Positions 1 through 35,986 of a stretch of DNA of 64,000 nucleotides are shown piece by piece (the first letter of the stretch is position 1; each line of letters starts with the position of its first letter). A program made the translations under genes and the position numbers. Location of the stretch: assembly GCF_044324785.1 (NCBI RefSeq), contig NZ_CP172129.1; one strand, written 5' to 3'. The stretch is from Escherichia coli (lineage in GTDB: Bacteria > Pseudomonadota > Gammaproteobacteria > Enterobacterales > Enterobacteriaceae). The notes under the pieces were generated by a model that made no database searches, was not told the DNA's origin, and worked only from the letters and a program-made list of their open reading frames with translations.

Positions 1-889
1 CGGCACTACGGCTGAGACGATTGCACTGTCCGGAGGCCGTTTTGCCACCCTTGCCGGAAAGGCCGATCCGCTAAACAAAATGCCGGAGATCAACGTTCGG
101 GGAAACGCAAAGGAATCAGTGCTGACACTTGATAAAGCTCCCGCCCTGTCGGAATGGAACGGCGGCTTCCACACCGGACAACTGCTTACCTCCATGCGCA
201 TTATCGCCGGGAAATCTCGCCAGGTTCGGCTCTATATTCCGGATGTTGATATTTCTCAGCCCCTCGGGCTGGTCGTGCTGCCCGATGGTGAAACCTGGTT
301 TGATCACCTTGGCGTATGCGCGGCAATTGACGCCGCCATAAATAATGGGCGCATCGTGCCCGTGGCTGTACTGGGCATTGACAACATTAATGAACATGAA
401 CGCACTGAGATACTCGGCGGGCGCAGCAAACTGATAAAGGATATCGCCGGACATCTGCTGCCGATGATTCGCGCTGAACAACCGCAGCGTCAGTGGGCAG
501 ACCGTTCGCGCACAGTGCTGGCCGGGCAGAGCCTCGGCGGGATCAGTGCGCTAATGGGGGCTCGTTACGCACCGGAAACGTTCGGTCTGGTGCTCAGCCA
601 CTCTCCTTCAATGTGGTGGACGCCAGAAAGAACCAGTCGACCAGGCTTGTTCAGCGAAACCGATACCTCATGGGTGAGTGAGCATCTGCTTTCTGCCCCA
701 CCGCAGGGCGTACGTATCAGCCTGTGCGTGGGATCGCTGGAAGGTTCGACAGTGCCTCACGTTCAGCAGCTTCACCAGCGGCTGATTACCGCTGGCGTCG
801 AAAGCCATTGCGCAATCTACACCGGTGGTCACGATTACGCATGGTGGCGCGGTGCACTGATTGACGGGATTGGTTTACTACAGGGTTGA
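1..889 (+). CDS. iroD: Salmochelin/enterobactin esterase IroD, C-terminal part (5' end cut by window edge; reading frame is open back to position 2)
   Basis: Translation has the esterase serine motif GQSLGG and a Fes/IroD-like C-terminus; sits directly upstream of iroE and iroN. Confidence 0.85.
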   Translation, partial: GTTAETIALSGGRFATLAGKADPLNKMPEINVRGNAKESVLTLDKAPALSEWNGGFHTGQLLTSMRIIAGKSRQVRLYIPDVDISQPLGLVVLPDGETWFDHLGVCAAIDAAINNGRIVPVAVLGIDNINEHERTEILGGRSKLIKDIAGHLLPMIRAEQPQRQWADRSRTVLAGQSLGGISALMGARYAPETFGLVLSHSPSMWWTPERTSRPGLFSETDTSWVSEHLLSAPPQGVRISLCVGSLEGSTVPHVQQLHQRLITAGVESHCAIYTGGHDYAWWRGALIDGIGLLQG

Positions 890-973
890 GTTGACCCACA
901 AACACTTTCAGGAAACGGTACAGACTTCCTGAATAAATCAAATAGTCACCTGCGGAAAAGGAATAATCATCAG

Positions 974-1930
974 ATGTATGCCCGCGAGTATCGCTCAACA
1001 CGCCCGCATAAAGCGATTTTCTTTCATCTTTCTTGCCTCACCCTTATCTGTAGTGCGCAAGTTTATGCGAAGCCGGATATGCGGCCACTGGGGCCGAATA
1101 TAGCCGATAAAGGCTCCGTGTTTTACCATTTCAGCGTCACCTCTTTCGACTCTGTCGATGGCACACGCCATTATCGGGTATGGACGGCCGTGCCGAATAC
1201 AACCGCACCGGCATCGGGTTACCCGATTTTATATATGCTTGACGGTAACGCAGTTATGGATCGCCTGGATGACGAACTGCTCAAACAATTGTCAGAAAAA
1301 ACACCGCCAGTGATCGTGGCTGTCGGGTATCAGACCAACCTCCCTTTCGATCTCAACAGCAGGGCTTACGACTATACGCCAGCAGCAGAAAGCAGAAAAA
1401 CAGATCTCCACTCAGGGCGTTTTAGCCGTAAGAGTGGTGGCAGCAACAACTTCCGCCAGTTACTGGAAACGCGTATTGCCCCAAAAGTGGAACAGGGACT
1501 GAATATCGATCGGCAACGCCGCGGCTTATGGGGGCACTCCTACGGCGGCCTCTTCGTGCTGGATTCCTGGCTGTCCTCCTCTTACTTCCGGTCGTACTAC
1601 AGCGCCAGCCCGTCGTTGGGCAGAGGTTATGATGCTTTGCTAAGCCGCGTTACGGCGGTTGAGCCTCTGCAATTCTGCGCCAAACACCTGGCGATAATGG
1701 AAGGCTCGGCGACACAGGGTGATAACCGGGAAACGCATGCTGTCGGGGTGCTGTCGAAAATTCATACCACCCTCACTATACTGAAAGATAAAGGCGTCAA
1801 TGCCGTATTTTGGGATTTCCCCAACCTAGGACACGGGCCGATGTTCAATGCCTCCTTTCGCCAGGCACTGTTAGATATCAGTGGTGAAAACGCAAATTAC
1901 ACAGCAGGTTGTCATGAGTTAAGCCACTAA
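974..1930 (+). CDS. iroE: Periplasmic salmochelin esterase IroE (318 aa)
   Basis: 318-aa product with N-terminal signal/anchor and hydrolase motif GHSYGG; position between iroD and iroN. Confidence 0.85.
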   Translation: MYAREYRSTRPHKAIFFHLSCLTLICSAQVYAKPDMRPLGPNIADKGSVFYHFSVTSFDSVDGTRHYRVWTAVPNTTAPASGYPILYMLDGNAVMDRLDDELLKQLSEKTPPVIVAVGYQTNLPFDLNSRAYDYTPAAESRKTDLHSGRFSRKSGGSNNFRQLLETRIAPKVEQGLNIDRQRRGLWGHSYGGLFVLDSWLSSSYFRSYYSASPSLGRGYDALLSRVTAVEPLQFCAKHLAIMEGSATQGDNRETHAVGVLSKIHTTLTILKDKGVNAVFWDFPNLGHGPMFNASFRQALLDISGENANYTAGCHELSH

Positions 1931-1933
1931 ACA

Positions 1934-1955
1934 CTGCCCGCTTTTACGCGGGCAG
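1934..1955. terminator. Hairpin between convergent iroE and iroN (ctgcccgc-ttttac-gcgggcag)
   Basis: 8-bp perfect stem with 6-nt loop read directly, lying between the two convergent stop codons. Confidence 0.5.
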
Positions 1956-1974
1956 TACGCCTGAAACACTACGA

Positions 1975-4152
1975 TCAGAATGATGCGGTAACTCCGGCAT
2001 AGTAAGCCCGGCCTGGCTCGTTATAGGTATTCGCCCCTTCAGAAGATCGGAAGATCTGTTTATTGAGGATATTACTGACGCCGACATTAAGACGCAGATT
2101 TTTATTAATATCGTAATTGAAGTTCGTCCCCACCAGTGAATAAGCGCCCAGCTCTTTACCTGACAGACCGCCAGTATCTTCACTGCGGGTTTCCGCATGA
2201 GTACGCGGTTTTTGTCTGCCATATAACGTCCAGTTGACGCTGGCAGAAAACGCCTGGGTGATGGTCCAGTTAAGCGAGTTATTGATAGTATATTTCGGGA
2301 TGACCGACAGAGGATTACCGGTGTCTTTTTGCTCCGAAGTGATCATCCATGTGGCATTGGTATTCCAGTTCAGACGATCTTTCACCAGTGGGAAAGACAT
2401 ACTGGCTTCGATACCGTCCACCAGAGCTTTCCCGCCATTCTGCCACTTGAGGATATATGCGCCTGAAGCGGTTTGCCCGATAACGTTATCCCCGGCCACG
2501 ATCTTATTCTGGTAATCATTGCGGAAGTAGGTCACACTTGCGTGGTAATCTTCCCAGGTGAACTCCAGCCCAATTTCTTTATTGACGCTGATTTCCGGAT
2601 CGAGATCTTTATTACCGATCAGGTAGCACCCGCCTGATGTAATATCTTTTGGACAGCCATTGCCTTTCGAGTAGAGCAGATAGCCTTCACTGGATTGATA
2701 CAGGTTTGGGGCTTTAAAGGTTCGGGCAACCCCTGCTTTGACTTTGAAATAATCGCCCAATTCCTGCGAAAGATTCAGACTGGGGCTGAAGTTCCCGCCG
2801 GAGTCGCTGAGATAATCAAAGCGCAGGCCGGGAATGATATTCGTGCCAGGAACCGGCTCAATGTTATCTTCAATATACAGCGCACTGATTTGAGAATGAT
2901 TTTTACTGCTGCGATCCGCAGCAGAGCCAGAAATACCGCTGATATCACTGTCATTCACCGTCAGGCTGGTAGAGGAAGGATCATCGAGCTTATCGCGGTT
3001 CCACTCTGCACCAACGGTCAGCGTTTGATCAACCATCACATTCAAAGGAATATTAAGCTCGCCGCTGGTTCGCCAGGAACTCAGGCGATTGGTCGTAAAC
3101 TTTTCACCCGCTAAAATACGCCCTTCACCACCGCCGGATAATCCTTCATTCATGCGGGTATTATTGGTTTTCTCGTAATAAACACCAAAGCGACTTTGTC
3201 CCCAGTCCCAGATACCATTATGCGTAATGCCATAATTCTGTCGGTACAGGCGGTTCGTCTCTTTGCCGGATTTTGCCAGGCTTTCGGTAACTGCACTGGA
3301 AGAACTGTTTTGCGTATCGCCCGCATAGATATTCCCCTGGCGGCTATATCCGGCTTCGAAATCGAGAATCTGCTGCGGATTTAATTTCCACGAGACAACG
3401 CCGTTAATATCTTTGTTACGTACCCCTTCATGCCCGGCTGCGTTTTTCGTACCGACCGGAGAATTAATATCCCAACTGTCAGCATCCGTTTTATTCAGGT
3501 TACCATACAAACGCGTGGTAAGAGCATTACCAGCCAGAGGCCCACTAAGGCTGAAATTGGCGCGACGCGTAGCGCCCTCATCGCTACTTTCCGGCTGATT
3601 GGTGTATAACGACAGCGAACCGTGCCAGTCGTTGGTGGGACGTTTGGTAATGATGTTCACCACCCCCCCGGCTGCCCCCGAACCGTAGCGCGCCGCCGCA
3701 GGGCCGCGGATCACTTCAATACGCTCAACCTGTTCCGGTGGCACCCAGTTGGTGTCACCGCGGGTATCACGCTCTCCACGCCAGCTATAACGCACGGAGT
3801 TACGTGACGTCACCGGTACACCATCAATTAAAATTAAGGTGTTTTCCGGCCCCATACCACGAATATCGATCTGGCGGTTGTTACCGCGTGTGCCCGAGGC
3901 GCTATTGCCGGTAAGATTGACGCCAGGCATTTTACGAATAATATCTGAAAGGTCGTTTACCGGAGGGGTCTTTTTAATATCCTCGCTGGTAATAACCGAC
4001 ACGCCCGGCTGCTGTTTTAATACCTGCTCAGCGGTGGCTTCCACCACCAGAGTCTCGTCATTATCATCGTCGGAGGATTTGGCTACTGATACCTGGCTAT
4101 TCAACCCAACCAGGAGCACAGTTAGCGACCAGAGGATTTTGTTAATTCTCAT
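1975..4152 (-). CDS. iroN: TonB-dependent outer-membrane salmochelin receptor IroN (725 aa)
   Basis: 725-aa product with signal peptide, TonB box-like ETLVVEA and C-terminal aromatic residue typical of TonB-dependent receptors. Confidence 0.9.
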   Translation of the reverse strand: MRINKILWSLTVLLVGLNSQVSVAKSSDDDNDETLVVEATAEQVLKQQPGVSVITSEDIKKTPPVNDLSDIIRKMPGVNLTGNSASGTRGNNRQIDIRGMGPENTLILIDGVPVTSRNSVRYSWRGERDTRGDTNWVPPEQVERIEVIRGPAAARYGSGAAGGVVNIITKRPTNDWHGSLSLYTNQPESSDEGATRRANFSLSGPLAGNALTTRLYGNLNKTDADSWDINSPVGTKNAAGHEGVRNKDINGVVSWKLNPQQILDFEAGYSRQGNIYAGDTQNSSSSAVTESLAKSGKETNRLYRQNYGITHNGIWDWGQSRFGVYYEKTNNTRMNEGLSGGGEGRILAGEKFTTNRLSSWRTSGELNIPLNVMVDQTLTVGAEWNRDKLDDPSSTSLTVNDSDISGISGSAADRSSKNHSQISALYIEDNIEPVPGTNIIPGLRFDYLSDSGGNFSPSLNLSQELGDYFKVKAGVARTFKAPNLYQSSEGYLLYSKGNGCPKDITSGGCYLIGNKDLDPEISVNKEIGLEFTWEDYHASVTYFRNDYQNKIVAGDNVIGQTASGAYILKWQNGGKALVDGIEASMSFPLVKDRLNWNTNATWMITSEQKDTGNPLSVIPKYTINNSLNWTITQAFSASVNWTLYGRQKPRTHAETRSEDTGGLSGKELGAYSLVGTNFNYDINKNLRLNVGVSNILNKQIFRSSEGANTYNEPGRAYYAGVTASF

Positions 4153-4248
4153 ACCTATTCCCTAATAAATGCCTAACTTAAAATGTTTGATCGTTAAGCT
4201 CACATCCTTGCCAGATATTTTTTACTGCCATTATTGTTTTTATATAAG

Positions 4249-4267
4249 AATGATAATTAATATCATT
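4249..4267. promoter_or_regulatory. Fur box-like sequence upstream of iroN (aatgataattaatatcatt)
   Basis: AT-rich near-palindrome resembling the Fur consensus GATAATGATAATCATTATC, about 100 bp upstream of the iroN start. Confidence 0.45.
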
Positions 4268-5006
4268 TAGCAAAAAAAAAAGCAATCCCTCACAAGATAA
4301 ATATATCGATTTTTCATAAATATCAAATTGATATATAACATATGTTTTTTATTTCATTGCACTTGTCGATCATCGGGAATTTTGTCACAATTTCTCACGG
4401 ATAGTGTTCACATTGTTTCTGACCTGCATTTCAGGCGCGGGCGCTGCTTATGTATATAAGGGCCTGTGGTCGACGAATCAGCATAATCAGATCTTCCTGC
4501 GAGCAATTTCTTTCAGCGTATCAGGCAGCACTATCGGATTATCTACGTGCGTTTTTGATTCACATTGTGTGTGAAACTTCATACATCATGATTCGCTTTC
4601 CCTACTCAGTTCTGATGATTGTTTTTTATTCTATTAACACGGAGTTAAGATTCTACCCTCGGTGTCCTCATTATTAATGAGGAATGCTACCTATCTAAAA
4701 ACTGACCGAAACTTTGGGGCATCCCTGGAGGTTTCCAAGGAGAAAAAGGTGACAGTGATAGTGCCACATTGTGAGGAAATTCCTGAGAAACTCCTGGTTC
4801 ACACACATAATTCAGGAGTTTGCCATAGATAGTAACCAATTGTTTTATATTTTAAGACCATTAAATACGCGGCTACGATAGCGCTTTATATAATCATAAA
4901 CTGTAGAGATAAAATATCTGCTTCTCTGATAACACTAATTGAGTGTCTTAAACTAAGTAATTTCATTTTTCCCCCTTTAAAAGCAATATATGTGCAATAG
5001 TTGAAG

Positions 5007-6041
5007 TTAAAGCTGTGCTGCCAGAGTTGATAATAATTGTTCTGTCTGTTGCCATGATATGCATTCATCAGTAACAGACTGACCATACTCTAGCGGAAAA
5101 CTATCGGATTGTTTTCCATCTTGTAAAAAGCTTTCCACCATAATGCCAGCTACATATCCTGGTATTTTTTTCCGATTATCTATAACTTGACGTGCAACGG
5201 AAATTTGCCGTTTAGCCACTTTACCGCTATTACCATGGCTACAATCAATTATCAGACGATGGTTAATACCCTCATCATGCATTAATTTCACTGCCTTAGT
5301 TATATCAGACAAACCATAGTTAGGTTCTCTACCTCCACGTAATATTAGATGTCCATGTGGATTGCCATCGGTTAATAGTGTAGATATACTATTTGTTAAA
5401 GATGTCATATATACAATATGTTGTTCACGGGCTGCAATAATAGCGTCAATAGCTAAGTTAATATTTCCATCAGTACTGTTTTTAAATCCAACTGGACAAT
5501 GTAAACCAGACGCAAGTTGACGATGCGTTTGTGATTCAGTGGTTCTGGCACCAATAGCACCCCAACATATTAAATCAGCAATATAGGGAGTAAGAAAAGG
5601 ATCGAGGAATTCTGTAGCGGTTGCGACACGCATCGTTGTGATTGAAGACAAACACTGGCGAGCATATCGTATCCCTTTCTCAACATCATAACTTCCATTT
5701 AGATCAGGATCGTGCATTATTCCCTTCCAGCCTTTACGGGTTCGAGGTTTCTCAAAATAAGTGCGCATTACAATGTACATTTTCGATAAGTACTTATTCT
5801 GTAATACGAACAATCGCTTCGCATAATCAACTGCGGCCTGAACGTCATGGATTGAGCATGGACCAACAATCACAAGTAAGCGAGGATCTTTTCCCAGCAA
5901 AATATTCGCTATAATATCTCGTTGCAGAGAGATCCATGTTACGGTTTCTTCCGATACTGCGATTTCTTTATGAATCTCGCCCACAGTGGGTAAACTGCCA
6001 AGCAACTTCCCGCGGTAGATTAATTTACTAGCTGACTGCAT
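5007..6041 (-). CDS. 3-deoxy-7-phosphoheptulonate (DAHP) synthase, AroF/G/H class (344 aa)
   Basis: Full-length similarity to class I DAHP synthases (KPRT, GARTTESQ, IMVESF-type motifs). Confidence 0.85.
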   Translation of the reverse strand: MQSASKLIYRGKLLGSLPTVGEIHKEIAVSEETVTWISLQRDIIANILLGKDPRLLVIVGPCSIHDVQAAVDYAKRLFVLQNKYLSKMYIVMRTYFEKPRTRKGWKGIMHDPDLNGSYDVEKGIRYARQCLSSITTMRVATATEFLDPFLTPYIADLICWGAIGARTTESQTHRQLASGLHCPVGFKNSTDGNINLAIDAIIAAREQHIVYMTSLTNSISTLLTDGNPHGHLILRGGREPNYGLSDITKAVKLMHDEGINHRLIIDCSHGNSGKVAKRQISVARQVIDNRKKIPGYVAGIMVESFLQDGKQSDSFPLEYGQSVTDECISWQQTEQLLSTLAAQL

Positions 6042-6252
6042 CTTGTCTCCTAAAAGCGCTATTTCAGACCATCAGTTGCACACAGTAGATGATAATGATA
6101 ATCATTTACTGTATAATTGGCAATATATGGGGATTCATAGTCATTTCTGAGATAATATACGTTAGGCCTTCTCTCCCGTACGGAAATCACTTGTTTTCCG
6201 TAAATTACCTGAATCTTAATCCCTGAGCTGCGGCTAGCTGTGGAACTCACAA

Positions 6253-6590
6253 AAGCTGACCGGGCCGTGGCACAGCCTCTCTGCTGGCAGAACAGCGTAC
6301 TGCAGAAGTCGTCGTACTGCCGCTGGTCCCGGCATCAGGTCTGCCCGCAGATGGCACTTCTGCCACTGATCTGCCGGTGGAGCTGAACGGCATGACATAT
6401 CAGGCCTGCCGTGGGGATTTTGTGGTGCGCCTCGACGGCAGCACCTGTCTGCAGTTATAGAATAAAGAAGGCGGGGAGGTACGCAGGGAGGGCGATCCGC
6501 TGGAAGTGGCGTAGTGGCTGTAGGCCTGTAATGATGCAGGAATAGAAGTTCGTGTACAGGTTAATGAAAGCATCACCCCGTAAAAACATG
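6253..6590 (+). pseudogene. Decayed copy of the 3' half of the ORF at 15720..16310, with in-frame stops and small deletions
   Basis: DNA near-identical to about 15950-16310 but interrupted by TAG codons (e.g. cagttatag, gtggcgtag). Confidence 0.6.
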
Positions 6591-6600
6591 CCGGCACGGT

Positions 6601-6909
6601 TTACACATCATTCCATGGTGGCAGCCGGTTAACTTTCCTGCGCCACCAGTGGAAAGAGGCCATGAGCAGTCCGAACAAAAAACCACTCGTGATACTTATA
6701 ATAATGGCCTCACCTGCTACCATTCCTGACGGCCCCCAGTACATAAACCACATTGCACATCCCCAGGAAATACCCCATAAGCCCCCCATCAGCAGCGTAA
6801 CCTGCCAGAACGGCATAAAGGGCAATGGCGGAAGCCGGATACCCAGCCGCCAGAGAATACGCAGCAGAGGAGGAGCATAATTACTCCGCCACATCTTTTT
6901 GCTGTCCAT
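6601..6909 (-). CDS. Small hydrophobic membrane protein (102 aa), paralogue of 16330..16587
   Basis: Hydrophobic segments; shares N- and C-terminal sequence with the 85-aa ORF at 16330..16587. Confidence 0.45.
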   Translation of the reverse strand: MDSKKMWRSNYAPPLLRILWRLGIRLPPLPFMPFWQVTLLMGGLWGISWGCAMWFMYWGPSGMVAGEAIIISITSGFLFGLLMASFHWWRRKVNRLPPWNDV

Positions 6910-7007
6910 CAGGGCAATTGCCCGGGCTTTTTTTGCTCAAAAGTCACAGGAGCACCTCCGTTCCATGATGTAAACGTGACACAACTTATTGTTATTGATT
7001 ATTATTA

Positions 7008-7190
7008 TCATACCGTGATTATGTTGTCATGCACCTGTACACTGATAAAAGAAAGGGAGAACAGGAGGCTGGCTGAACAACCAATCCGTTCGTCCAGTTC
7101 AATGGCGGCTATCAGGTTCTGCTCCGCAATGTACTCACGAATGCGCTTCCTGTCCTGGCTGGTCAGCATGGTCCAGAATATCTCCATCAT
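7008..7190 (-). pseudogene. Truncated ParE/RelE-family toxin gene (first ~40 codons match 20033..20314, then diverges)
   Basis: N-terminus MMEIFWTML...IELDERIG matches the intact copy; loses homology at a deletion junction near 7055-7068. Confidence 0.65.
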
Positions 7191-7450
7191 TTACCGGCGA
7201 CTTTCCTGCTCATTTCATCCCGCCATGCAGCAGCGGAAGATTCGACCATGTCATGGGGAAGCACATCGCCGCGCTCGAGTTGCTGACGTCCTGCCTCAAC
7301 CTGGTCACGGAACCAGGTATTATGCTGCCGTTCCACGGTCTGGCGCATAAAATCCCGGATTAACTGAGAGCCATTACGGTCCATGCTTTTTGCAGGGCCA
7401 TAAAAGCATCCTTCAGTTCAGCGTCAATTCTTAAACTCATATTAACCTGT
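7187..7450 (-). pseudogene. Frameshifted RHH (ParD/CopG-like) antitoxin gene, copy of 20311..20580
   Basis: C-terminal 65 codons identical to the intact copy; a 1-bp loss near 7395 (gcagggcc versus gcagcggcc) breaks the N-terminus. Confidence 0.6.
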
Positions 7451-7477
7451 GCCATTTATCACCCCGTCATTACCACG

Positions 7478-7494
7478 TATATACACAGTATATA
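7478..7494. promoter_or_regulatory. Inverted repeat tatatac-aca-gtatata upstream of the decayed antitoxin gene (copy of 20603..20619)
   Basis: Same operator-like palindrome as upstream of the intact antitoxin. Confidence 0.4.
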
Positions 7495-8065
7495 ACGATT
7501 CAGATATCGTCACTAGGATATGCCGCGCCAGCGGCATGGAAGGCGGCACTCCGCTGTTTCATATGATACCGCCGAAGCCCGATGTAAGCCGCTACAGTCG
7601 TCCGAAAGTCACCAGCCTCCTCCCCCCTGCCGTCATCCGTGCATCAGCTATGCACTGAGTATGCCTGCCCTTCCCTAGAGAATCCTGCTAGGCTTGCCAC
7701 ACTGATATATCTTGACTTTATGTAAACGATATGACACTTTAACATGATAATGATTACCATTCTCTTTTAATATACAGAGAAACTAGGAAATAGATGAATG
7801 AGTTATGTTACTTTAATATTCTCTGACAATAACCTAAATCAGTTAGATTATTGTCATTTAATAAATAATGACATTCTTTCATCATAAATAAAAAGACTAT
7901 TGTTTATAATATTGTTCTCAGCATTATATGATTATTTATCCTGATAACTCTCCTATGCTGTATGTTTATATGATTTTCCTTGAAACATATAATGCAAATT
8001 TTCGATTTATTTTCCATCATTAATCCAGATAAACAACAAACTAATAGTATGCAAGGAGACATTAT

Positions 8066-9340
8066 TTGTTTCGCCAGGATGCTTTAGAAAACAGAAAAAT
8101 GAAGTGGCAGGGACGGGCAATATTACTTCCCGGAATACCACTGTGGTTAATCATGCTGGGAAGCATTGTGTTTATTACGGCATTTCTGATGTTCATTATT
8201 GTTGGTACCTATAGCCGCCGTGTTAATGTCAGTGGTGAGGTCACAACCTGGCCAAGAGCTGTCAATATATATTCAGGTGTACAGGGATTTGTTGTCAGGC
8301 AGTTTGTTCATGAAGGGCAGTTGATAAAAAAAGGGGATCCTGTTTATCTGATTGACATCAGTAAAAGTACACGCAATGGTATTGTCACTGATAATCATCG
8401 CCGGGATATAGAAAACCAGCTGGTTCGTGTGGACAACATTATTTCCCGTCTGGAAGAAAGTAAAAAAATAACGCTAGATACCCTGGAAAAACAACGTCTG
8501 CAATACACAGATGCGTTCCGTCGCTCATCAGACATTATACAGCGTGCAGAGGAAGGGATAAAAATAATGAAAAATAATATGGAGAATTACAGATACTATC
8601 AGTCAAAAGGACTGATTAATAAAGATCAATTAACTAACCAAGTTGCATTATATTATCAACAACAAAACAACCTTCTCAGTCTGAGCGGACAAAATGAACA
8701 AAATGCCCTGCAGATAACCACTCTGGAGAGTCAGATTCAGACTCAGGCAGCAGATTTTGATAATCGTATCTATCAGATGGAACTGCAACGACTCGAATTG
8801 CAGAAAGAACTGGTTAACACTGATGTGGAAGGCGAAATCATTATCCGGGCGTTGTCTGACGGGAAAGTTGACTCCCTGAGTGTCACTGTAGGGCAAATGG
8901 TCAATACCGGAGACAGCCTTCTGCAGGTTATTCCTGAGAACATTGAAAACTATTATCTTATTCTCTGGGTCCCGAATGATGCTGTTCCTTATATTTCGGC
9001 TGGTGACAAAGTGAATATTCGTTATGAAGCCTTCCCCTCAGAAAAATTTGGGCAGTTCTCTGCTACGGTTAAAACTATATCCAGGACTCCTGCGTCAACA
9101 CAGGAAATGTTGACCTATAAGGGAGCACCTCAAAATACGCCGGGTGCCTCTGTTCCCTGGTATAAAGTCATTGCGACGCCTGAAAAGCAGATAATCAGGT
9201 ATGACGAAAAATACCTCCCTCTGGAAAATGGAATGAAAGCCGAAAGTACACTATTTCTGGAAAAAAGGCGTATTTACCAGTGGATGCTTTCTCCTTTCTA
9301 TGACATGAAACACAGTGCAACAGGACCGATCAATGACTAA
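8066..9340 (+). CDS. cvaA: Colicin V secretion protein CvaA (HlyD-type membrane fusion protein; alternative internal start at 8099)
   Basis: Translation matches CvaA over its full length as recalled; N-terminal TM segment and coiled-coil region. Confidence 0.9.
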
Positions 9341-10109: not shown

Positions 10110-11166
10110 GGCTTTGTTGAATAAATCGAACTTTTGCTGAGTTGAAGGATCAGATCACGTATCTTCCCGACAACGCAGACCGTTCCGTGGCAAAGCAAAA
10201 GTTCAAAATCACCAACTGGCCCACCTACAATAAAGCCCTCATCAACCGTGGCTCCATAACTTTCTGGCTGGATGATGAAGCTATTCAGGCCTGGTATGAG
10301 TCAGCAACACCTTCTTCACGAGGCAGACCTCAGCGCTATTCTGACCTTGCCATCACTACTGTGCTGGTCATTAAACGCGTATTCAGGCTGACCCTGCGGG
10401 CTGCGCAGGGCTTTATTGATTCCATTTTTTCTCTGATGAACGTTCCGCTACGCTGCCCGGATTACAGCTGTGTCAGCAGGCGGGCAAAGTCGGTTAATGT
10501 CAGTTTCAAAACGCCCACCCGGGGTGAAATCGCACACCTGGTAATTGATTCCACCGGGCTGAAGGTCTTCGGTGAAGGCGAGTGGAAAGTCAAAAAGCAT
10601 GGCCAGGAACGCCGCCGTATCTGGCGTAAGCTGCATCTCGCCGTTGACAGTAAAACACATGAAATCATCTGCGCTGACCTGTCGCTGAACAACGTTACGG
10701 ACTCAGAGGCCTTCCCCGGGTTAATCCGGCAAACCCACCGGAAAATCAGGTCAGCCGCCGCCGATGGCGCTTACGATACCCGGCTATGTCACGATGAACT
10801 GCGGCGTAAGAAAATCAGCGCGCTTATCCCTCCCCGAAAAGGTGCGGGTTACTGGCCCGGTGAATATGCAGACCGTAACCGTGCAGTGGCTAATCAGCGA
10901 ATGACCGGGAGTAATGCGCGGTGGAAATGGACAACAGATTACAACCGTCGCTCGATAGCGGAAACGGCGATGTACCGGGTAAAACAGCTGTTCGGGGGTT
11001 CACTGACGCTGCGTGACTACGATGGTCAGGTTGCGGAGGCTATGGCCCTGGTACGAGCGCTGAACAAAATGACGAAAGCAGGTATGCCTGAAAGCGTGCG
11101 TATTGCCTGAAAACACAACCCGCTACGGGGGAGACTTACCCGAAATCTGATTTATTCAACAAAGCC
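10110..11166 (+). mobile_element. IS903-group (IS5 family) insertion sequence, 1057 bp, with terminal inverted repeats and 9-bp target-site duplication CTTCTCAGA
   Basis: Ends ggctttgttgaataaatcgaa / ccgaaatctgatttattcaacaaagcc; identical 9-mer at 10101-10109 and 11167-11175. Confidence 0.85.
10142..11110 (+). CDS. IS903-group DDE transposase (322 aa)
   Basis: Motifs IDSTGLKVFGEGEWK, DGAYDT, RRSIAETAMYRVK typical of IS903/IS102 transposases. Confidence 0.8.
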   Translation: MKDQITYLPDNADRSVAKQKFKITNWPTYNKALINRGSITFWLDDEAIQAWYESATPSSRGRPQRYSDLAITTVLVIKRVFRLTLRAAQGFIDSIFSLMNVPLRCPDYSCVSRRAKSVNVSFKTPTRGEIAHLVIDSTGLKVFGEGEWKVKKHGQERRRIWRKLHLAVDSKTHEIICADLSLNNVTDSEAFPGLIRQTHRKIRSAAADGAYDTRLCHDELRRKKISALIPPRKGAGYWPGEYADRNRAVANQRMTGSNARWKWTTDYNRRSIAETAMYRVKQLFGGSLTLRDYDGQVAEAMALVRALNKMTKAGMPESVRIA

Positions 11167-13235: not shown

Positions 13236-13254
13236 AACGATAATGATTATCGTT
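13236..13254. promoter_or_regulatory. Fur box upstream of cvi-cvaC (aacgataatgattatcgtt)
   Basis: 19-bp palindrome close to the Fur consensus, about 45 bp upstream of the cvi start. Confidence 0.6.
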
Positions 13255-13308
13255 AACATAGTCAAGAGTGAAGGGTAGGAGGCCCTCAACCCCCTATAAG
13301 GGGTCCGC

Positions 13309-15462: not shown

Positions 15463-15723
15463 ATGGATGAAGAAAGGGTGTTTTCACTCAGCTATGAACA
15501 ACTGACCCGGTTTGCGGAAAAACGCATCCGGGAATGCAATCTGGACAGCCAGGGCGTAACTTATCTCTGCGAGTCAGCCAAAGCCGGAGCTGTGCTGATC
15601 TTCTGGCATGAACTGGCCATAAATGGCTATGCCTCAATGAATGCCATAAAGAGACAGGAGATCATTGACGCCGACCATCAGCGCCTCAGAAAGCTCATCT
15701 GGCCGGAGGATGACTGGAAATGA
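15463..15723 (+). CDS. Hypothetical protein (86 aa), first gene of a two-gene GC-rich operon
   Basis: ORF with overlapping stop/start (ATGA) with the next gene; no recognisable motif. Confidence 0.4.
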   Translation: MDEERVFSLSYEQLTRFAEKRIRECNLDSQGVTYLCESAKAGAVLIFWHELAINGYASMNAIKRQEIIDADHQRLRKLIWPEDDWK

Positions 15724-16310
15724 CTCAGAGCCGCCGACCGTCGCCACTGCAGCGAAGAATGCTGATTGTGCTGGCTGCCCTTGATGAAAAACGGCCAGGA
15801 CCCGTGCTGACGCGGGACATAGAACGGGTGCTGGAGCGAAGCGGGGAAGCCCCAGTCTACGGGCCAAACCTGCGCGCCTCCTGCCGTCGTCTGGAGGATG
15901 CCGGCTGGCTGCGTACCCTGCGCGCTCCGAACCTGCAGCTGGCAGTGGAGCTGACGGACGTCGGCCGGGCCGTGGCACAGCCTCTGCTGCTGGCAGAACA
16001 GGACCGCCTCCGGGCAGAACAGCGTGCGGCAGAAGTCGTCGTACTGCCGCTGGTCCCGGCAGCAGGTCTGCCCGCAGATGGCACTTCTGCCACTGATCTG
16101 GCGGTGCAGCTGAACGGCATAACGTATCAGGCCTGCCGTGGGGATTTTGTGGTGCATCTCGACGGCAGCACCTGTCTGCAGTTATGGAATAAAGAAGGCA
16201 GGGTGGTACGCCGGGAGGGCGATCCGCTGGAAGTGGCGCAGTGGCTGCAGGCCTGTCACGATGCAGGAATGGAGGTTCGCGTACAGATAAATGAAAGTGC
16301 CGCTCCGTAA
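15720..16310 (+). CDS. Hypothetical protein (196 aa), possible N-terminal winged-helix-like domain
   Basis: Translationally coupled to the upstream ORF; a partial decayed copy exists at 6253..6590. Confidence 0.45.
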   Translation: MTQSRRPSPLQRRMLIVLAALDEKRPGPVLTRDIERVLERSGEAPVYGPNLRASCRRLEDAGWLRTLRAPNLQLAVELTDVGRAVAQPLLLAEQDRLRAEQRAAEVVVLPLVPAAGLPADGTSATDLAVQLNGITYQACRGDFVVHLDGSTCLQLWNKEGRVVRREGDPLEVAQWLQACHDAGMEVRVQINESAAP

Positions 16311-16329
16311 GAACACGCCTGTGCACGGT

Positions 16330-16587
16330 TTACACATCATCCCATGGTGGCAGCCGGTTAACTTTCCTGCGCCCCCAGTAGATAAACCACATTGCACATC
16401 CCCAGGAAATGCCCCATAAGCCCCCCGTCAGCACCGTGACCTGCCAGAACGGCATAAAGGGTAATGGCGGAAGCCGGATACCCAGCCGCCAGAGAATACA
16501 CAGAAGAGGAGGGGCATAATTGCTCCGCCACATCTTTTTGCTGTCCATCAGGGCAATGGCCCGGGCTTTTTTCTGCTCAAAGGTCAC
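16330..16587 (-). CDS. Small hydrophobic membrane protein (85 aa), paralogue of 6601..6909 with an internal deletion
   Basis: Shares termini with the 102-aa copy; lacks about 100 bp present in that copy. Confidence 0.4.
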   Translation of the reverse strand: MTFEQKKARAIALMDSKKMWRSNYAPPLLCILWRLGIRLPPLPFMPFWQVTVLTGGLWGISWGCAMWFIYWGRRKVNRLPPWDDV

Positions 16588-16715
16588 AGGAGCACCTCCG
16601 TTCCATGATGTAAACGTGACACAGCTTATTGTTATTGATTATTATTATCATGCTGTGGTTATGTTGTCATGCATCAGTACACTGACAAAAGTGCAAAAGA
16701 AAGGAAAACAGGCAG

Positions 16716-17051
16716 ATGAACAGAAAATATTATTTTAATAATATGTGGTGGGGATGGGTGACGGGGGGATATATGCTGTATATGTCATGGGATTATGATT
16801 TTAAATACAGATTACTGTTCTGGTGTATTTCTCTCTGCGGAATGGTTTTGTATCCGGTTGCAAAATGGTATATTGAAGATACAGCTCTGAAATTTACCCG
16901 GCCTGATTTCTGGAACAGCGGTTTTTTTGCTGATACACCTGGAAAAATGGGATTGCTTGCTGTTTATACGGGTACTGTTTTCATATTATCTCTTCCGTTA
17001 AGTCTGATATATATTCTTTCTGTTATTATAAAAAGGCTGTCTGTAAGATAG
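16716..17051 (+). CDS. iia: Colicin Ia immunity protein (111 aa)
   Basis: 111-aa membrane protein MNRKYYFNNMWWGW..., convergent with and adjacent to the colicin Ia gene. Confidence 0.9.
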   Translation: MNRKYYFNNMWWGWVTGGYMLYMSWDYDFKYRLLFWCISLCGMVLYPVAKWYIEDTALKFTRPDFWNSGFFADTPGKMGLLAVYTGTVFILSLPLSLIYILSVIIKRLSVR

Positions 17052-17058
17052 ACAGCCT
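17034..17058. terminator. Hairpin ggctgtc-tgtaagata-gacagcc followed by a T-rich run, between convergent imm and cia
   Basis: 7-bp stem and 9-nt loop read directly. Confidence 0.45.
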
Positions 17059-17072
17059 GTCTTATATTTTAT

Positions 17073-18953
17073 TTAAATACCCCAGAACTTATTCGCTTTT
17101 TCCACAAGCGATTCATCAATCAGCGCACCGGTGACAGCCATCAGTAAACCATACCCGATAATGCCTAAAGCGCTTCCGGTAAGAATACTGAAGACCAGTG
17201 CAACAAGAGCCGTTGCGGCATTGCCTGCTATAATGGCTTCTGTTTTAACAAAAAGAGGACGCCAGTTCTCTGTCCGGACACCCTTACCAAACTCAGTGAT
17301 CCAGTCAGCAAGACTTGTAAATTTTCCTGCATATCCCAGTCCCCGACTGAATCTGTTCAGATTAGACGATATATCAGACAGCTTCACTGACTCAAGGGCT
17401 GCGGCAATCGCTGCACGATCTTTTGCATTAATTTTTTTGTTAATGTCAGCCCGGTACTTTTCATACGTTTTTAATGCCTCTTCAACATTACGTATTTTCT
17501 TCCCTTTAGCCTGCCCGGCCATCTCTCTGGCTAACTGCTCAGCTTTTGCACCATATTTTTCTGAAACTGATTTCAGGAACTCTGTTGTGAAATTAATTGC
17601 GTCTTTCGTTGCCTTCAGTTCATCCTGTTTTCTTTTCTCTTCCGCTATCTTCTGATTGATGCCGGCAAGCTGGTTACGGATATTCTCTTTTTCCTTCAAC
17701 AGGGCATTAAGAGCGTCATTTGCATGCTTTTGCTCATTTGTTCTGGCACTGAGGTTATTTCTCGCAGAATTTACCGCAGATTCAGCAGAGGTGATTTTAT
17801 TTCTGGCATCAAGCAATCTTTGCCGTAACTTATCCCATTCAGCAACTTCAGCATTATAAATTTTCTTGTCACCTTCCACATCCTCTGTCACCACCGGATT
17901 CCGGTCATTCAGAATATTGCGTTTATAGTCCAGACCGGAATGGGTCAGAAGATAATTCAGGTTTGCACGGTTATCGATGACTGCGCTGGTTGTGATTTTT
18001 ATCGTACCGGCAAATCTCGGATCACCGCTCACAACAATAGAATGATTTGTTGATGAACGCCCCGGGAATTTTTCAGGGGAAACTATCGTTTTGCCGTCAA
18101 GCGTGTTTTTCTGTTGCGTCAGCTGTTGCTCAGCTCTGGTTAATGCATTACGGGCCGTGTTAAGCGATTCCGTCACTGAACTGAGTTTATTCCGGGCCTC
18201 TGAAATGGCCCTGTCATTCCGTGTCTGCTGCCCGAGCAGACGGGCCTGTTGTGCATCAAGAACGGCAAGGGCTGCCCCGCCATTTTTTTCCAGCTCTGAC
18301 AACCGCGTGTCCAGAATACCTTTTCTGCGCTCGTATTCAGCAAGCATATCAGCGGCCTTCTTGTCTGCGTTCTGCGCATCCTTCTGCCGTTTTTCAGCCT
18401 GTTCGATTAACGACCTGGCCTCCCGGGGAGATATACGAAGAGAATCAGCATCAGCAAAGAGCATCCGGCTCTCTGTATGCAGCCGGAGGGCATCATATCC
18501 GGCGATTTCAGTACGGAATCCGTATTCTCTCAGCTCTGCCTGCAGGAGTCTGAACTCCTGTCGTGTAATATCAGCGGCATCTGCGTTTCCGGCACGGAGT
18601 GTTTTCAGTGTGTTTTCATCTTTTTCCCTTGCAGCAATCGCCGCAGAGAGGCGTTTTGCGGCTTCAGTACGCTTATTCTCATTCTCTTTCTGCTGCGCGC
18701 TGAGCGTCATTTTGTACGCTGTGATTTCCTTGTCCCTTTTTTCGATATCACTTCGGGTTGGGGAATCATCGACCCACTCGTTTCCGCCCCAGATGGTTTT
18801 GTTCCCGAAGGAACTCCATGCAGGCGGGGTACCATGAAAGACATCGACACGTGGAGGGTTTACATAAATATCAACGGCCATAATTTCATGGCCATCTGAA
18901 TCATACCCCAGCGATTCTGCACCGGGATTTGTAATACGTACAGGGTCAGACAT
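17073..18953 (-). CDS. cia: Colicin Ia (626 aa, pore-forming)
   Basis: 626-aa product MSDPVRITNPGAESLGYDSDGHEIMAVDIY... with C-terminal hydrophobic channel-forming hairpin. Confidence 0.95.
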   Translation of the reverse strand: MSDPVRITNPGAESLGYDSDGHEIMAVDIYVNPPRVDVFHGTPPAWSSFGNKTIWGGNEWVDDSPTRSDIEKRDKEITAYKMTLSAQQKENENKRTEAAKRLSAAIAAREKDENTLKTLRAGNADAADITRQEFRLLQAELREYGFRTEIAGYDALRLHTESRMLFADADSLRISPREARSLIEQAEKRQKDAQNADKKAADMLAEYERRKGILDTRLSELEKNGGAALAVLDAQQARLLGQQTRNDRAISEARNKLSSVTESLNTARNALTRAEQQLTQQKNTLDGKTIVSPEKFPGRSSTNHSIVVSGDPRFAGTIKITTSAVIDNRANLNYLLTHSGLDYKRNILNDRNPVVTEDVEGDKKIYNAEVAEWDKLRQRLLDARNKITSAESAVNSARNNLSARTNEQKHANDALNALLKEKENIRNQLAGINQKIAEEKRKQDELKATKDAINFTTEFLKSVSEKYGAKAEQLAREMAGQAKGKKIRNVEEALKTYEKYRADINKKINAKDRAAIAAALESVKLSDISSNLNRFSRGLGYAGKFTSLADWITEFGKGVRTENWRPLFVKTEAIIAGNAATALVALVFSILTGSALGIIGYGLLMAVTGALIDESLVEKANKFWGI

Positions 18954-18995
18954 TCGGTATCTCCTTCATCCGCTGAGGAAAACAAATGAATTAAC

Positions 18996-19024
18996 TGCTT
19001 ACGTATGTGGATACATATACAGTA
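18996..19024. promoter_or_regulatory. LexA (SOS) box-like sequence upstream of cia (minus strand TACTGTATATGTATCCACATACGTAAGCAG)
   Basis: CTGTATAT half-site and AT-rich core 43-70 bp upstream of the cia start codon; colicin genes are classically SOS-regulated. Confidence 0.5.
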
Positions 19025-19138
19025 TTAATTTATTAAGGAGAAAATGGCATGTCAAGATTTAATGATAGTGATTATCATTAACATGAAGTGATTTTACGTC
19101 TGGATAACGTAAATGATTGCGGTATACAGGCCAGGCGG

Positions 19139-19987
19139 TCAGATTTTCAGCCGTGCCTGTTCCTGCAGCAGTTCCAGATGATATGCAGCAATAGCGTTTA
19201 CCACCCCTGCCGTCATCCGTGCGTCGGCGATCGCTGAGTGTGCCTGCCCTTCCCAGGTCAGTCCGGCCTGGCTGGCAGCACAGGCCAGTGAAATCGTGCC
19301 ATAGCGGTTGGTGGCCCCATAATATCCTGCAGCCAGCTCCATCGCACAATATACCGTCAGTTCTTCCAGCCAGTCAGCCGGATCGCTATGTGCGGCAGCA
19401 GTCTGTTTCAGAATGCGGATGTCGAACCGGGCATTAAAGATAATTACTGGTCGGTCCCCGATTGCATGACGCAGTTGCCGCGCCACATCTGTCCATGATG
19501 GTGCGCCGCAGAGAGCCTGCTCGCTGATACCATGCACAGCGGCGGCCTGCGCCCCGATGGCGACCGTGGGCTTCAGCCTGGTTTCAAATACCACCTGACC
19601 GGACGCATCGGTCAGGCCGATTTCCAGAGCTTCCGCGGTATTGTCCAGTCCTGTCGTTTCAGTATCCAGAAAGAGCGGTGCCAGACTCAGCCAGTCATAT
19701 GCCTGCCGTGCCATCCGGCCACTGGTGCTGTTAAGTCTGGATAAAACGGAAAGTCGCTGGCCAGCCAGAAGTTGTTTACTCGTCAGTGGGCGTTTCTCAC
19801 GCATCGGAACACAGTCTGCAATTCGGTATACAGCGAACCTGCCACCATAAGTGTTTTTATACCACTTAACCGGCTCAGCACCGGGGGCTGGCTTCATTCT
19901 GAATTCATCGCGCAGCCGTTCTTTCGAGAAACACCTGTCTTCGGCAATCGCCTGCGCACGTCTGGTGGCCAGCTCATCATTATTCAT
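19139..19987 (-). CDS. DnaQ-like DEDDh 3'-5' exonuclease domain protein (282 aa)
   Basis: Exo I motif LFLDTETTGLD, then an HxAxxD-type motif (HSAIADA) near the C-terminus. Confidence 0.7.
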   Translation of the reverse strand: MNNDELATRRAQAIAEDRCFSKERLRDEFRMKPAPGAEPVKWYKNTYGGRFAVYRIADCVPMREKRPLTSKQLLAGQRLSVLSRLNSTSGRMARQAYDWLSLAPLFLDTETTGLDNTAEALEIGLTDASGQVVFETRLKPTVAIGAQAAAVHGISEQALCGAPSWTDVARQLRHAIGDRPVIIFNARFDIRILKQTAAAHSDPADWLEELTVYCAMELAAGYYGATNRYGTISLACAASQAGLTWEGQAHSAIADARMTAGVVNAIAAYHLELLQEQARLKI

Positions 19988-20032
19988 GGTTCTTGCATCT
20001 CCGTCAGACCTTTTTATATCCGGACAGCCCCT

Positions 20033-20314
20033 CTATGGCCACTTCTGTGCAGTATGCAATACACGCAGGATATACACTTTTCCCCACTGGCTGTCGACCT
20101 CATAAACCAGAACAAAATGCGGGTGAATAACCAGTTCCCGGGTACCTTCCACACGACCGTTGCGGCCTTTATACGGCTGCCCGGCCAGGCTGCTGGCTGA
20201 ATAACCAATCCGTTCGTCCAGTTCAATGGCGGCCATCAGGTTCTGCTCCGCAATGTACTCACGAATGCGCTTCCTGTCCTGGCTGGCCAGCATGGTCCAG
20301 AATATCTCCATCAT
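20033..20314 (-). CDS. ParE/RelE-family type II toxin (93 aa)
   Basis: Small basic protein overlapping the stop of the upstream RHH antitoxin gene; typical toxin-antitoxin layout. Confidence 0.75.
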   Translation of the reverse strand: MMEIFWTMLASQDRKRIREYIAEQNLMAAIELDERIGYSASSLAGQPYKGRNGRVEGTRELVIHPHFVLVYEVDSQWGKVYILRVLHTAQKWP

Positions 20315-20580
20315 TTACCGGCGACTTTCCTGCTCATTTCATCCCGCCATGCAGCAGCGGAAGATTCGACCATGTCATGGGGAAGCACATCGCCGCGCTC
20401 GAGTTGCTGACGTCCTGCCTCAACCTGGTCACGGAACCAGGTATTATGCTGCCGTTCCACGGTCTGGCGCATAAAATCCCGGATTAACTGAGAGCCATTA
20501 CGGTCCATGCTTTTTGCAGCGGCCATAAAAGCATCCTTCAGTTCAGCGTCAATTCTTAAACTCATATTAACCTGTGCCAT
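20311..20580 (-). CDS. Ribbon-helix-helix (ParD/CopG-like) antitoxin (89 aa)
   Basis: N-terminal RHH-like segment SLRIDAELKDAF; 4-bp overlap with the toxin gene. Confidence 0.75.
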   Translation of the reverse strand: MAQVNMSLRIDAELKDAFMAAAKSMDRNGSQLIRDFMRQTVERQHNTWFRDQVEAGRQQLERGDVLPHDMVESSAAAWRDEMSRKVAGK

Positions 20581-20602
20581 TTATCACCTCGTCATTACTA
20601 CG

Positions 20603-20619
20603 TATATACACAGTATATA
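20603..20619. promoter_or_regulatory. Inverted repeat tatatac-aca-gtatata upstream of the antitoxin gene (likely autoregulatory operator)
   Basis: Palindrome about 23 bp upstream of the antitoxin start. Confidence 0.45.
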
Positions 20620-21190
20620 ACGATTCAGATATCGTCACCAGAATATGCCGCGTCAGCGGCATGGAAGGCGGCACTCTGTTGTTGCATATGACACAGGAGT
20701 AAAACCGCCGAAGCCCGGCGTAAGCCGGTACGGACTGATAGATTTCACCTTACCCATCCCCAGCCCTGCTAGGCCATATCCGCTTTCAGCCATGATAAAG
20801 CTTCTGTGCGCGGTCGGAGTGGTCCCGACGAGGGTTTACCCGAAGTCGGGGCGTATCTCCGCGTTAGCGGGCCGTCAGGGCCGCTTACGAGCGTGTACTC
20901 AATACTTTCAGCGAGAAGACTGACAGCCATGATGGAGTATAGTTACAACATTCATAATTAAAAGCGACTCTGTTCCGGCCCGAAGGGCCGGGGCGGGGCC
21001 GCTTTTCAGTTATGAGGGAGGGGCTTTGTGGTTTCAGTTCTGCGCTGGTTCGGGGTTTTTCTGGAGGTTGGTTTTGTGTGTTGTAACTAAAGTGGCTCCG
21101 GTTGGGGCCCGCCGTTTACGGTGGGAGGTGCATATCTGTCTGTCCACAGGACAGGCAGTGAATAGGTTTTCTTTTTAAATGAATGTAATT

Positions 21191-21228
21191 GGGGAGCCCG
21201 CAGAATTCGGAAAAAATCGTACGCTAAG
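21191..21228. repeat. 38-bp terminal inverted repeat of a Tn21-subgroup (Tn3-family) transposon (tnpA end)
   Basis: ggggagcccgcagaattcggaaaaaatcgtacgctaag immediately downstream of the tnpA stop. Confidence 0.75.
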
Positions 21229-35967: not shown

Positions 35968-35986
35968 GATAATGAGAATCATTATT
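35968..35986. promoter_or_regulatory. Fur box in the iucA promoter (gataatgagaatcattatt)
   Basis: Near-consensus Fur box about 45 bp upstream of the iucA start. Confidence 0.75.

Follow-up and report, generated by a model that had tools for sequence, protein, structure and literature searches.

Two versions of one IncI/IncF backbone module on a ColV-ColIa plasmid of Escherichia coli, one of them very probably an older relic that decayed in steps

Gene content of the region

From its sequence, the window (the whole stretch of 64,000 nucleotides that was analysed) is assigned to the pS88 / pSF-088-1 type of IncF ColV-ColIa virulence plasmids. Its first 25 kb are 99.7% identical to IncF plasmids of ~150 kb such as pSF-088-1. 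The gene order in the window is iroN, DAHP synthase, relic, cvaA, cvaB, cvaC, cvi, ..., ydfA, ydeA, ybaA, imm, cia, yacC, yacB, yacA. It agrees with that reported for the ColV-ColIa plasmid pS88, namely repA1-yacA-yacB-yacC-cia-imm-ybaA-ydeA-ydfA ... cvaA-(ORF118)-ORF123-iroN (PMC3438092). The gene names ydfA and ydeA were taken from the annotation of pS88 and from plasmid records.

The segment 6000-7800 was used as query with BLASTN against the whole window and gave three matches, all on the same strand. Positions 6228-6653 match 15933-16382 (84.9% identity, E 3e-147), positions 6732-7051 match 16371-16691 (93.8%, E 4e-139) and positions 7062-7595 match 20186-20731 (94.7%, E 0). The two copies, hereafter copy A and copy B, are in direct orientation, lie ~9-13 kb apart and share their gene order. 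The left and right parts are separated by 3494 bp in copy B versus ~10 bp in copy A. Nothing in copy A corresponds to the spacer of copy B, which contains imm, cia, yacC and the last 52 codons (3' part) of yacB. A first-pass annotation of this DNA had presented 6253-7500 as the decayed counterpart of 15950-20650, with a junction mapping to both 16690 and 20190 and with about 3.5 kb of imm, cia, exonuclease gene and toxin 3' part between the two halves of the intact copy. BLASTN and the base-level alignment bear this out, the matches ending at 16691 and resuming at 20186. The left limit that it proposed was correct within 25 bp, whereas the homology on the right runs ~95 bp further, to 7595.

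The features of copy A are the following:

6228..6583, plus strand: 3' part of a ydeA-like gene, a pseudogene aligning to 15933-16310 of the intact 196-aa ORF
6601..6909, minus strand: ybaA, encoding a DUF6404 small membrane protein (ORF list; alignment with 115-aa YbaA proteins)
6910..7067, no strand: promoter region of ybaA and former ybaA-imm intergenic region, aligning to 16550-16700
7062..7190, minus strand: 5' remnant of yacB (RelE/ParE-type toxin), codons 1-41 of 93 from the alignment with intact YacB
7068..7076, no strand: deletion junction, the lone surviving copy of a 9-bp direct repeat, GCTGGCTGA
7187..7455, minus strand: yacA (antitoxin) with a 1-bp deletion at ~7396; ORFs 7360-7455 and 7187-7384
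7456..7595, minus strand: upstream region of yacA, aligning to 20581-20731
7624..7675, minus strand: fragment of a yacC-like DEDDh exonuclease gene (region encoding EGQAHSAIADA), 88% identical to 19204-19254 (E 5e-12)

The ydeA-like pseudogene lacks ~213 bp of its 5' end, contains a 21-bp indel and is interrupted by in-frame stops, for example TAG near 6457, 6512 and 6521. In ybaA, the first 13 codons were lost through a 1-bp deletion in a T-run near 6933, and the frame is open from Met14 onwards. From Met14 on, the ORF is identical to the 115-aa allele of plasmid pCP55-IncFIB, and this A-lineage protein matches Pfam DUF6404 (PF19942) over positions 1-114 of 115 (E 7e-37). Upstream of ybaA, promoter-like hexamers are found at 7030-7001 on the minus strand, and Fur-box-like sites occur at 6991-7009 in copy A and 16631-16649 in copy B. 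The 60-aa ORF that holds the yacB remnant has no match in NCBIfam. The antitoxin gene yacA is split into ORFs of 31 and 65 aa; outside the frameshift most of the gene does not differ from copy B, with 100% identity across 200 bp. This stretch of complete identity possibly reflects gene conversion between the copies or recent common ancestry. A 7-bp inverted repeat, TATATAC-N3-GTATATA, lies upstream of yacA at 7478-7494 and is a candidate yacA operator; copies A and B have the same inverted repeats.

Copy A contains neither a complete toxin ORF nor a complete antitoxin ORF of a type II system, and neither cia nor imm of a colicin Ia operon. Judged by its reading frames, its toxin-antitoxin pair is dead. 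The in-frame stops, the frameshifted antitoxin and the toxin cut at the junction, all noticed in the first-pass annotation, were recovered in our alignments and ORF lists. Additional to it are the 21-bp indel in ydeA, the 1-bp deletion in ybaA, the 52-bp yacC-like match and, in copy B, a 90-bp deletion in ybaA.

The 52-bp yacC-like fragment is located upstream of the yacA promoter, at the right edge of copy A. A distant-mode search with 7570-7900 for the context of this scar returned ordinary yacC genes and ColV plasmids only.

Copy A is already marked as pseudogenes in RefSeq. On pSF-088-1, PGAP annotates the ydeA part as [quoted passage not shown], ybaA as an intact "DUF6404 family protein", and the toxin and antitoxin as "yacB; incomplete; missing C-terminus" and "yacA; frameshifted". 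A literature search on ybaA and the IncI1 colicin and on ColV-ColIa plasmids found nothing on the copy A relic; the gene table of pS88 and one toxin-antitoxin survey were the relevant sources.

The features of copy B are the following:

15463..16310, plus strand: ydfA (86 aa) and ydeA (196 aa), both intact in the ORF list
16330..16587, minus strand: ybaA with 90 bp deleted in frame, encoding 85 aa rather than 115
16716-17051, plus strand: imm, colicin Ia immunity (PGAP, neighbour: "colicin 1A immunity protein")
17073-18953, minus strand: cia, colicin Ia, with a 626-aa product matching residues 23-624 of PDB 1CII (1268 bits)
19139..19987, minus strand: yacC, DnaQ-like 3'-5' exonuclease (NCBIfam DEDDh / DnaQ-family models; PGAP)
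20033..20731, minus strand: yacB (20033-20314), yacA (20311-20580) and upstream region, both genes intact and bearing these names in PGAP

Both cia and the convergent imm are present in copy B. YacB scores 31.8 bits against the RelE_StbE model TIGR02385 (cut-off 27.9), and the N-terminus of YacA resembles the RelB_DinJ model, below cut-off. The yacA gene is an intact ORF of 89 aa that overlaps yacB by 4 bp, so that a complete toxin above cut-off is accompanied by a complete, upstream and overlapping antitoxin. From these features, copy B (~15.3-21.2 kb) is taken to be a working module for colicin Ia whose yacAB pair is intact. No significant Pfam or NCBIfam family was found for the 196-aa YdeA. 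In pS88, copy B is located beside repA1; homology of the window to this FII-type flank stops at ~21190, where a Tn1721/TnAs1-type inverted repeat starts.

Compared with the module of pS88 and of the IncI complex, copy B shares genes and order, with 96-98% identity to IncI-gamma/K1 over ydfA-cia, and differs by a private 90-bp deletion in ybaA. The missing segment corresponds to 6644-6733 of copy A, and its loss removes residues 73-102 of YbaA; the deletion is specific to copy B relative to copy A and all other alleles examined. Copy A is a diverged and broken version of the same module, without imm, cia, yacC and the 3' part of yacB, and it occupies a different site, between the DAHP-synthase gene and cvaA.

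An undeleted form of copy A in related plasmids

A search with 6000-8100 revealed that plasmid pI66 (LC620533.1) matches copy A only as far as the junction. In pCP55-IncFIB (NZ_CP053732.1), which is better preserved than pI66, the same locus is present with the same flanks and without the deletion. The undeleted locus was also found in NC_025175.1 and in a total of 95 PLSDB records. The window and these relatives have in common the DAHP-synthase gene, the left truncation of ydeA, the region upstream of cvaA and the yacC-like scar, which in the relatives stands beside a complete yacC. The flanks are 99-99.7% identical (98.9% for the right flank of pCP55).

In the numbering of the pCP55-IncFIB locus (L007), positions 1-3622 correspond to 3455-7076 of the window (99.7%) and positions 5441-6265 to 7062-7885 (98.9%). 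These two alignments overlap on the 9-mer GCTGGCTGA, and the length difference is 1833 bp. The 9-mer is found twice in the pCP55 locus, at 3614 (directly before the ATG of imm) and at 5447 (inside yacB), versus once in the window, at the junction. The plasmid pI66 yields the same result. The 1833-bp segment comprises the first 24 bp of imm, an ORF of 160 aa, an intact yacC and the rest of yacB. Searches of Pfam and NCBIfam with the 160-aa ORF gave no significant family. Apart from this segment, the undeleted locus differs from copy A in that yacA and ybaA are intact in pCP55, where ybaA, yacC, yacB and yacA are all annotated as such.

The window copy equals the undeleted form minus the 1833 bp between the two 9-bp direct repeats, of which one copy is left. 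On this comparison, copy A arose by deletion and not by insertion. Deletions between short direct repeats can occur independently of RecA, by slipped-strand or illegitimate recombination. Copy A shares all the traits of such events, i.e. a perfect 9-bp repeat at both ends, one repeat kept and collinear flanks, and no difference was found; a slipped-strand or short-homology mechanism would account for the 1833-bp loss. The 90-bp deletion in ybaA of copy B appears to be of the same character, sitting between the imperfect repeats TTCCTGCGCC and TTCCTGACGGCC (6+3 bp). By far the simplest reading is that the undeleted form is the ancestor of the deleted form, or identical to that ancestor, and the geometry of the 9-bp repeats favours this descendant relation over a sister relation.

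The first-pass annotation had left the choice between an insertion of the colicin Ia block into one copy and its deletion from the other by short-homology recombination. The mechanism of deletion stands, but the colicin block was not the piece lost. In the nearest undeleted relative, cia is absent and imm is reduced to its first 24 bp, so that the last deletion would have taken out the 160-aa ORF, yacC and the 3' portion of yacB. The same allele, GGAGGCTGGCTGATGAACAGGAAATATTATCTTAAT, precedes a full-length imm in an IncI-gamma/K1 plasmid, and the 24 bp in the A lineage are therefore a true imm remnant. The colicin operon was probably lost from this lineage in an earlier and separate event. No plasmid was found that combines the flanks of copy A with a complete imm-cia, so that the argument for a past colicin gene at the A site consists of the 24-bp remnant and the IncI-type arrangement.

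Distribution of the two copies

The deletion junction (query 6950-7180) is fully covered in 286 PLSDB records, 283 of them at 99% identity or more, and was detected in 339 of 5426 complete E. coli genomes. Copy B is present over at least 80% of its length in 113 PLSDB records, and the whole 25-kb arrangement with both copies in 66. Consequently, at least ~170 plasmids (286 versus at most 113) harbour copy A without a complete copy B. In these plasmids and genomes, copy A is a constant element between the DAHP-synthase gene and cvaA, as in the window.

Proposed history of copy A

The window very probably contains two versions of one IncI/IncF backbone module, with the gene order ydfA-ydeA-ybaA-(imm-cia)-yacC-yacB-yacA, of which copy A would be an older relic that decayed in four steps. 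The relic extends over 6228-7595, with the scar at 7624-7675, and lies between the DAHP-synthase gene, which is iron-regulated, and cvaA. In the first step, the left end would have been cut inside ydeA. In the second, imm would have been cut after 24 bp, with loss of the colicin gene and joining of the 160-aa ORF and yacC-yacB-yacA; the resulting state appears to survive with intact genes in ~95 plasmids. We infer the order of these first two steps. In the third step, a RecA-independent deletion between the GCTGGCTGA repeats would have removed the 1833 bp carrying the 160-aa ORF, yacC and the final 52 yacB codons. Finally, single-base deletions would have broken yacA and clipped the start of ybaA. 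The history builds on what was observed here, namely the homology of the copies, the undeleted relative, the repeats at the junction, the frequencies of the forms and the finding that neither copy has the other as its nearest relative. These four steps do not account for the yacC-like fragment at 7624-7675.

Possible functions of the relic

The relic is probably without function, apart from ybaA, which is possibly still expressed. This is the only gene of copy A for which activity can be argued, from its open frame, its promoter-like hexamers, the Fur-box-like site and a pN/pS of 0.2-0.3 against other alleles, a ratio calculated from small counts. That the remnant was kept because it is useful is very unlikely. 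Three forms of such usefulness are possible. The 65-aa C-terminal fragment of YacA (7187-7384) might neutralise YacB of incoming IncI/IncF plasmids and so act in anti-addiction; the retained candidate operator might titrate YacA-YacB as a decoy; or ybaA might be the selected gene. The chance that the YacA fragment and the operator serve against YacAB competitors, or that an iron-regulated ybaA takes part in bacteriocin biology, is rated as equally slight.

The occurrence of the junction form at 99% identity or more in 283 plasmids speaks for a useful remnant, but the recent spread of one plasmid lineage explains this high identity equally well. The open frame of ybaA with its promoter-like and Fur-box-like sites, and the low pN/pS along its history, point in the same direction, as does ORF118 of pS88, located beside cvaA and induced ~4-fold in iron-poor media (PMC3438092), whose equivalence to ybaA is only putative. 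Against it are the disabling lesions in yacA, yacB and ydeA, and ybaA itself has lost its first codons in the window form. For the YacA fragments and the retained operator-like inverted repeat, a role is possible but unsupported.

Copies A and B as separate lineages

The first-pass annotation regarded copy A as a segmental duplicate, which would mean that copy B was duplicated within this plasmid and that the duplicate then lost imm-cia-yacC and decayed. The direct orientation of the copies, their spacing of ~9-13 kb, their common gene order and the near identity of yacA agree with such an event, which we nevertheless consider highly unlikely. Copy A is widespread with identical flanks in plasmids without copy B, the junction records (286) outnumbering those of copy B (at most 113), and records H108 and H235 have one matching place each. 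From the identity matrix, we observe that ydeA of copy B is 98.3% identical to the IncI-gamma/K1 allele versus 90.8% to copy A, and that ybaA of copy B is 98.2% identical to the IncF allele versus 94.1% to copy A; in the yacBA segment, B and A are 97% identical. Copy B is therefore closer to alleles of other plasmids (98%) than to copy A (91-94%), and the two are not closest relatives. Moreover, the ydeA parts of A and B are only 85% identical, and the undeleted A form has the 160-aa ORF where copy B has imm-cia. As A-only plasmids exist and B is nearer to other alleles, the sequences indicate that A and B represent two versions of one backbone module, each inherited or acquired on its own, rather than the products of a duplication in this plasmid.

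Insertion and other arrangements without colicin

The converse reading, in which the ancestral site was empty, with ybaA adjacent to yacBA, and copy B was formed by insertion of imm-cia-yacC, is hardly credible: the junction of copy A lies inside yacB at codon 41, within a reading frame that all undeleted relatives have without interruption, so that an insertion would also have to bring the missing 52 codons in frame, and this in-frame 3' part of yacB in copy B is left unaccounted for. The 9-bp repeat geometry and the undeleted relative show a deletion instead, and the A lineage has kept the first 24 bp of imm. Boundaries of a mobile element (inverted repeats, target duplications) were not seen in the alignments around 16692-20185 of copy B.

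The observation that comes closest to an empty site is the pHNBS17e type (53 plasmids in PLSDB), where ybaA and yacB, both intact, are separated by 84 bp and imm, cia and yacC are all missing from the gap. The block missing there includes yacC, which is found linked to yacB-yacA in a very large number of colicin-less plasmids, and a deletion is consequently the simpler reading for this type too. The pHNBS17e type shares with copy A a module without the colicin block; it differs in its breakpoints (16657 / 20016 of copy B) and in that ybaA and yacB are both intact. Its junction was rejected as the ancestral empty site for copy A, whose breakpoint is elsewhere, inside yacB, and from its position it represents an event independent of copy A. 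Many other plasmids contain hyp160-yacC-yacB-yacA or yacC-yacB-yacA without any colicin. Taken together, these arrangements depict the region as a mosaic of three repeatedly reshuffled sub-modules (ydfA-ydeA-ybaA; imm-cia; yacCBA), of which copy A would be one frozen outcome.

Significance for ColV plasmid evolution

Copy A is a case of ordinary plasmid decay that public annotation had already recorded. New here, and of value as lineage markers only, are the junction at the 9-bp repeat, the ancestor-like form without the deletion, the probable loss of the colicin operon at an earlier stage and the 90 bp missing from the otherwise "intact" copy. The significance goes little beyond bookkeeping, apart from three points. 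Firstly, the presence or absence of the deletion and the precise 9-bp junction can conveniently serve as lineage markers for the evolution of ColV plasmids. Secondly, yacA/yacB figures among the toxin-antitoxin systems scored as "over-represented in ColV plasmids" (PMC4707298). In about three quarters of the ColV-linked PLSDB loci (286 versus 95 records), yacAB is a pseudogene, and surveys of this kind may be counting the broken yacA/yacB of copy A. Thirdly, A and B form direct repeats of ~0.3-0.5 kb with 94-95% identity around the whole ColV operon, and they are a plausible substrate for the homologous deletion of cvaABC-cvi in ColV-ColIa plasmids.

Colicin-less junctions and breakpoints of the colicin Ia module

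A ybaA/yacB junction devoid of the colicin block is found in plasmid pHNBS17e (L006) and in 52 other PLSDB records. Intact ybaA and intact yacB are separated there by 84 bp, imm, cia and yacC are missing, and the breakpoints correspond to window positions 16657 and 20016. This is a second colicin-less junction, independent of that of copy A, the decayed ydeA-ybaA-yacB-yacA relic. The features concerned here are the following:

L006 3100-3340: ybaA/yacB junction without colicin block
Window 16330-16587: ybaA of copy B (colicin Ia module), with a 90-bp in-frame deletion
Window 20858-20897 and L007 3645-3684: 40-bp GC-rich motif with hairpin, CCGCGTTAGCGGGCCGTCAGGGCCGCTTACGAGCGTGTA
L007 3795-4277 (pCP55-IncFIB) and L002 7180-7770 (pI66): 160-aa ORF replacing imm-cia
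Window 7624-7675 (weaker homology to 7704): internal fragment (52-81 bp) of a yacC-like exonuclease gene

The deletion in copy-B ybaA removes residues 73-102 of 115 and lies between two short, imperfect repeats (TTCCTGCGCC and TTCCTGACGGCC); the missing 90 bp are still present in the decayed copy A. In copy B, the hairpin motif is located upstream of yacA. In the undeleted relatives pCP55 and pI66, imm is cut after 24 bp and the motif constitutes the precise breakpoint on the right-hand side; it may represent a recurrent recombination point. The 160-aa ORF (hyp160), flanked in the undeleted copy-A lineage by two near-identical palindromes of ~36 bp each (CATTAATGCTAATGTATGCATACATTAGCATTAATG), has no family match in Pfam or NCBIfam, and the unit hyp160-yacC-yacB-yacA is frequent on other plasmids. 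The yacC-like fragment, localized upstream of the copy-A yacA promoter, displays 77-88% identity with yacC. The undeleted relatives carry this fragment together with a complete yacC; an earlier rearrangement, or a second cassette, may have left it behind as a scar.

Mobile elements

Window 10110-11166: IS903-type insertion sequence (1057 bp) inside cvaB
Window from ~21191: Tn1721/TnAs1-type terminal inverted repeat (38 bp), GGGGAGCCCGCAGAATTCGGAAAAAATCGTACGCTAAG
Window 21224-24190: Tn3-family transposase gene (988 aa)

The IncFII-type flank of copy B is broken by the Tn1721/TnAs1-type repeat and the transposase gene; in pS88 this flank runs straight into repA1 (PMC3438092). The IS903-type element, with terminal repeats GGCTTTGTTGAATAAATC... 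and a 9-bp target duplication (CTTCTCAGA), is absent from pSF-088-1, where the surrounding sequence is otherwise 100% identical. It interrupts the ColV export ABC transporter gene, and this plasmid is probably unable to export colicin V.

Fur-box-like sites

Sites with at most 3 mismatches to GATAATGATAATCATTATC gave 12 strand matches at 7 loci (chance expectation 0.01):

Window 6091-6109, 6991-7009, 7746-7764, 13239-13257, 16631-16649, 19064-19082, 35968-35986: Fur-box-like sites

Such sites precede both ybaA copies, cvaA, the cvi/cvaC region, cia and the DAHP-synthase gene; the latter is ORF123 of pS88, reported to be induced >100-fold in iron-poor media (PMC3438092).
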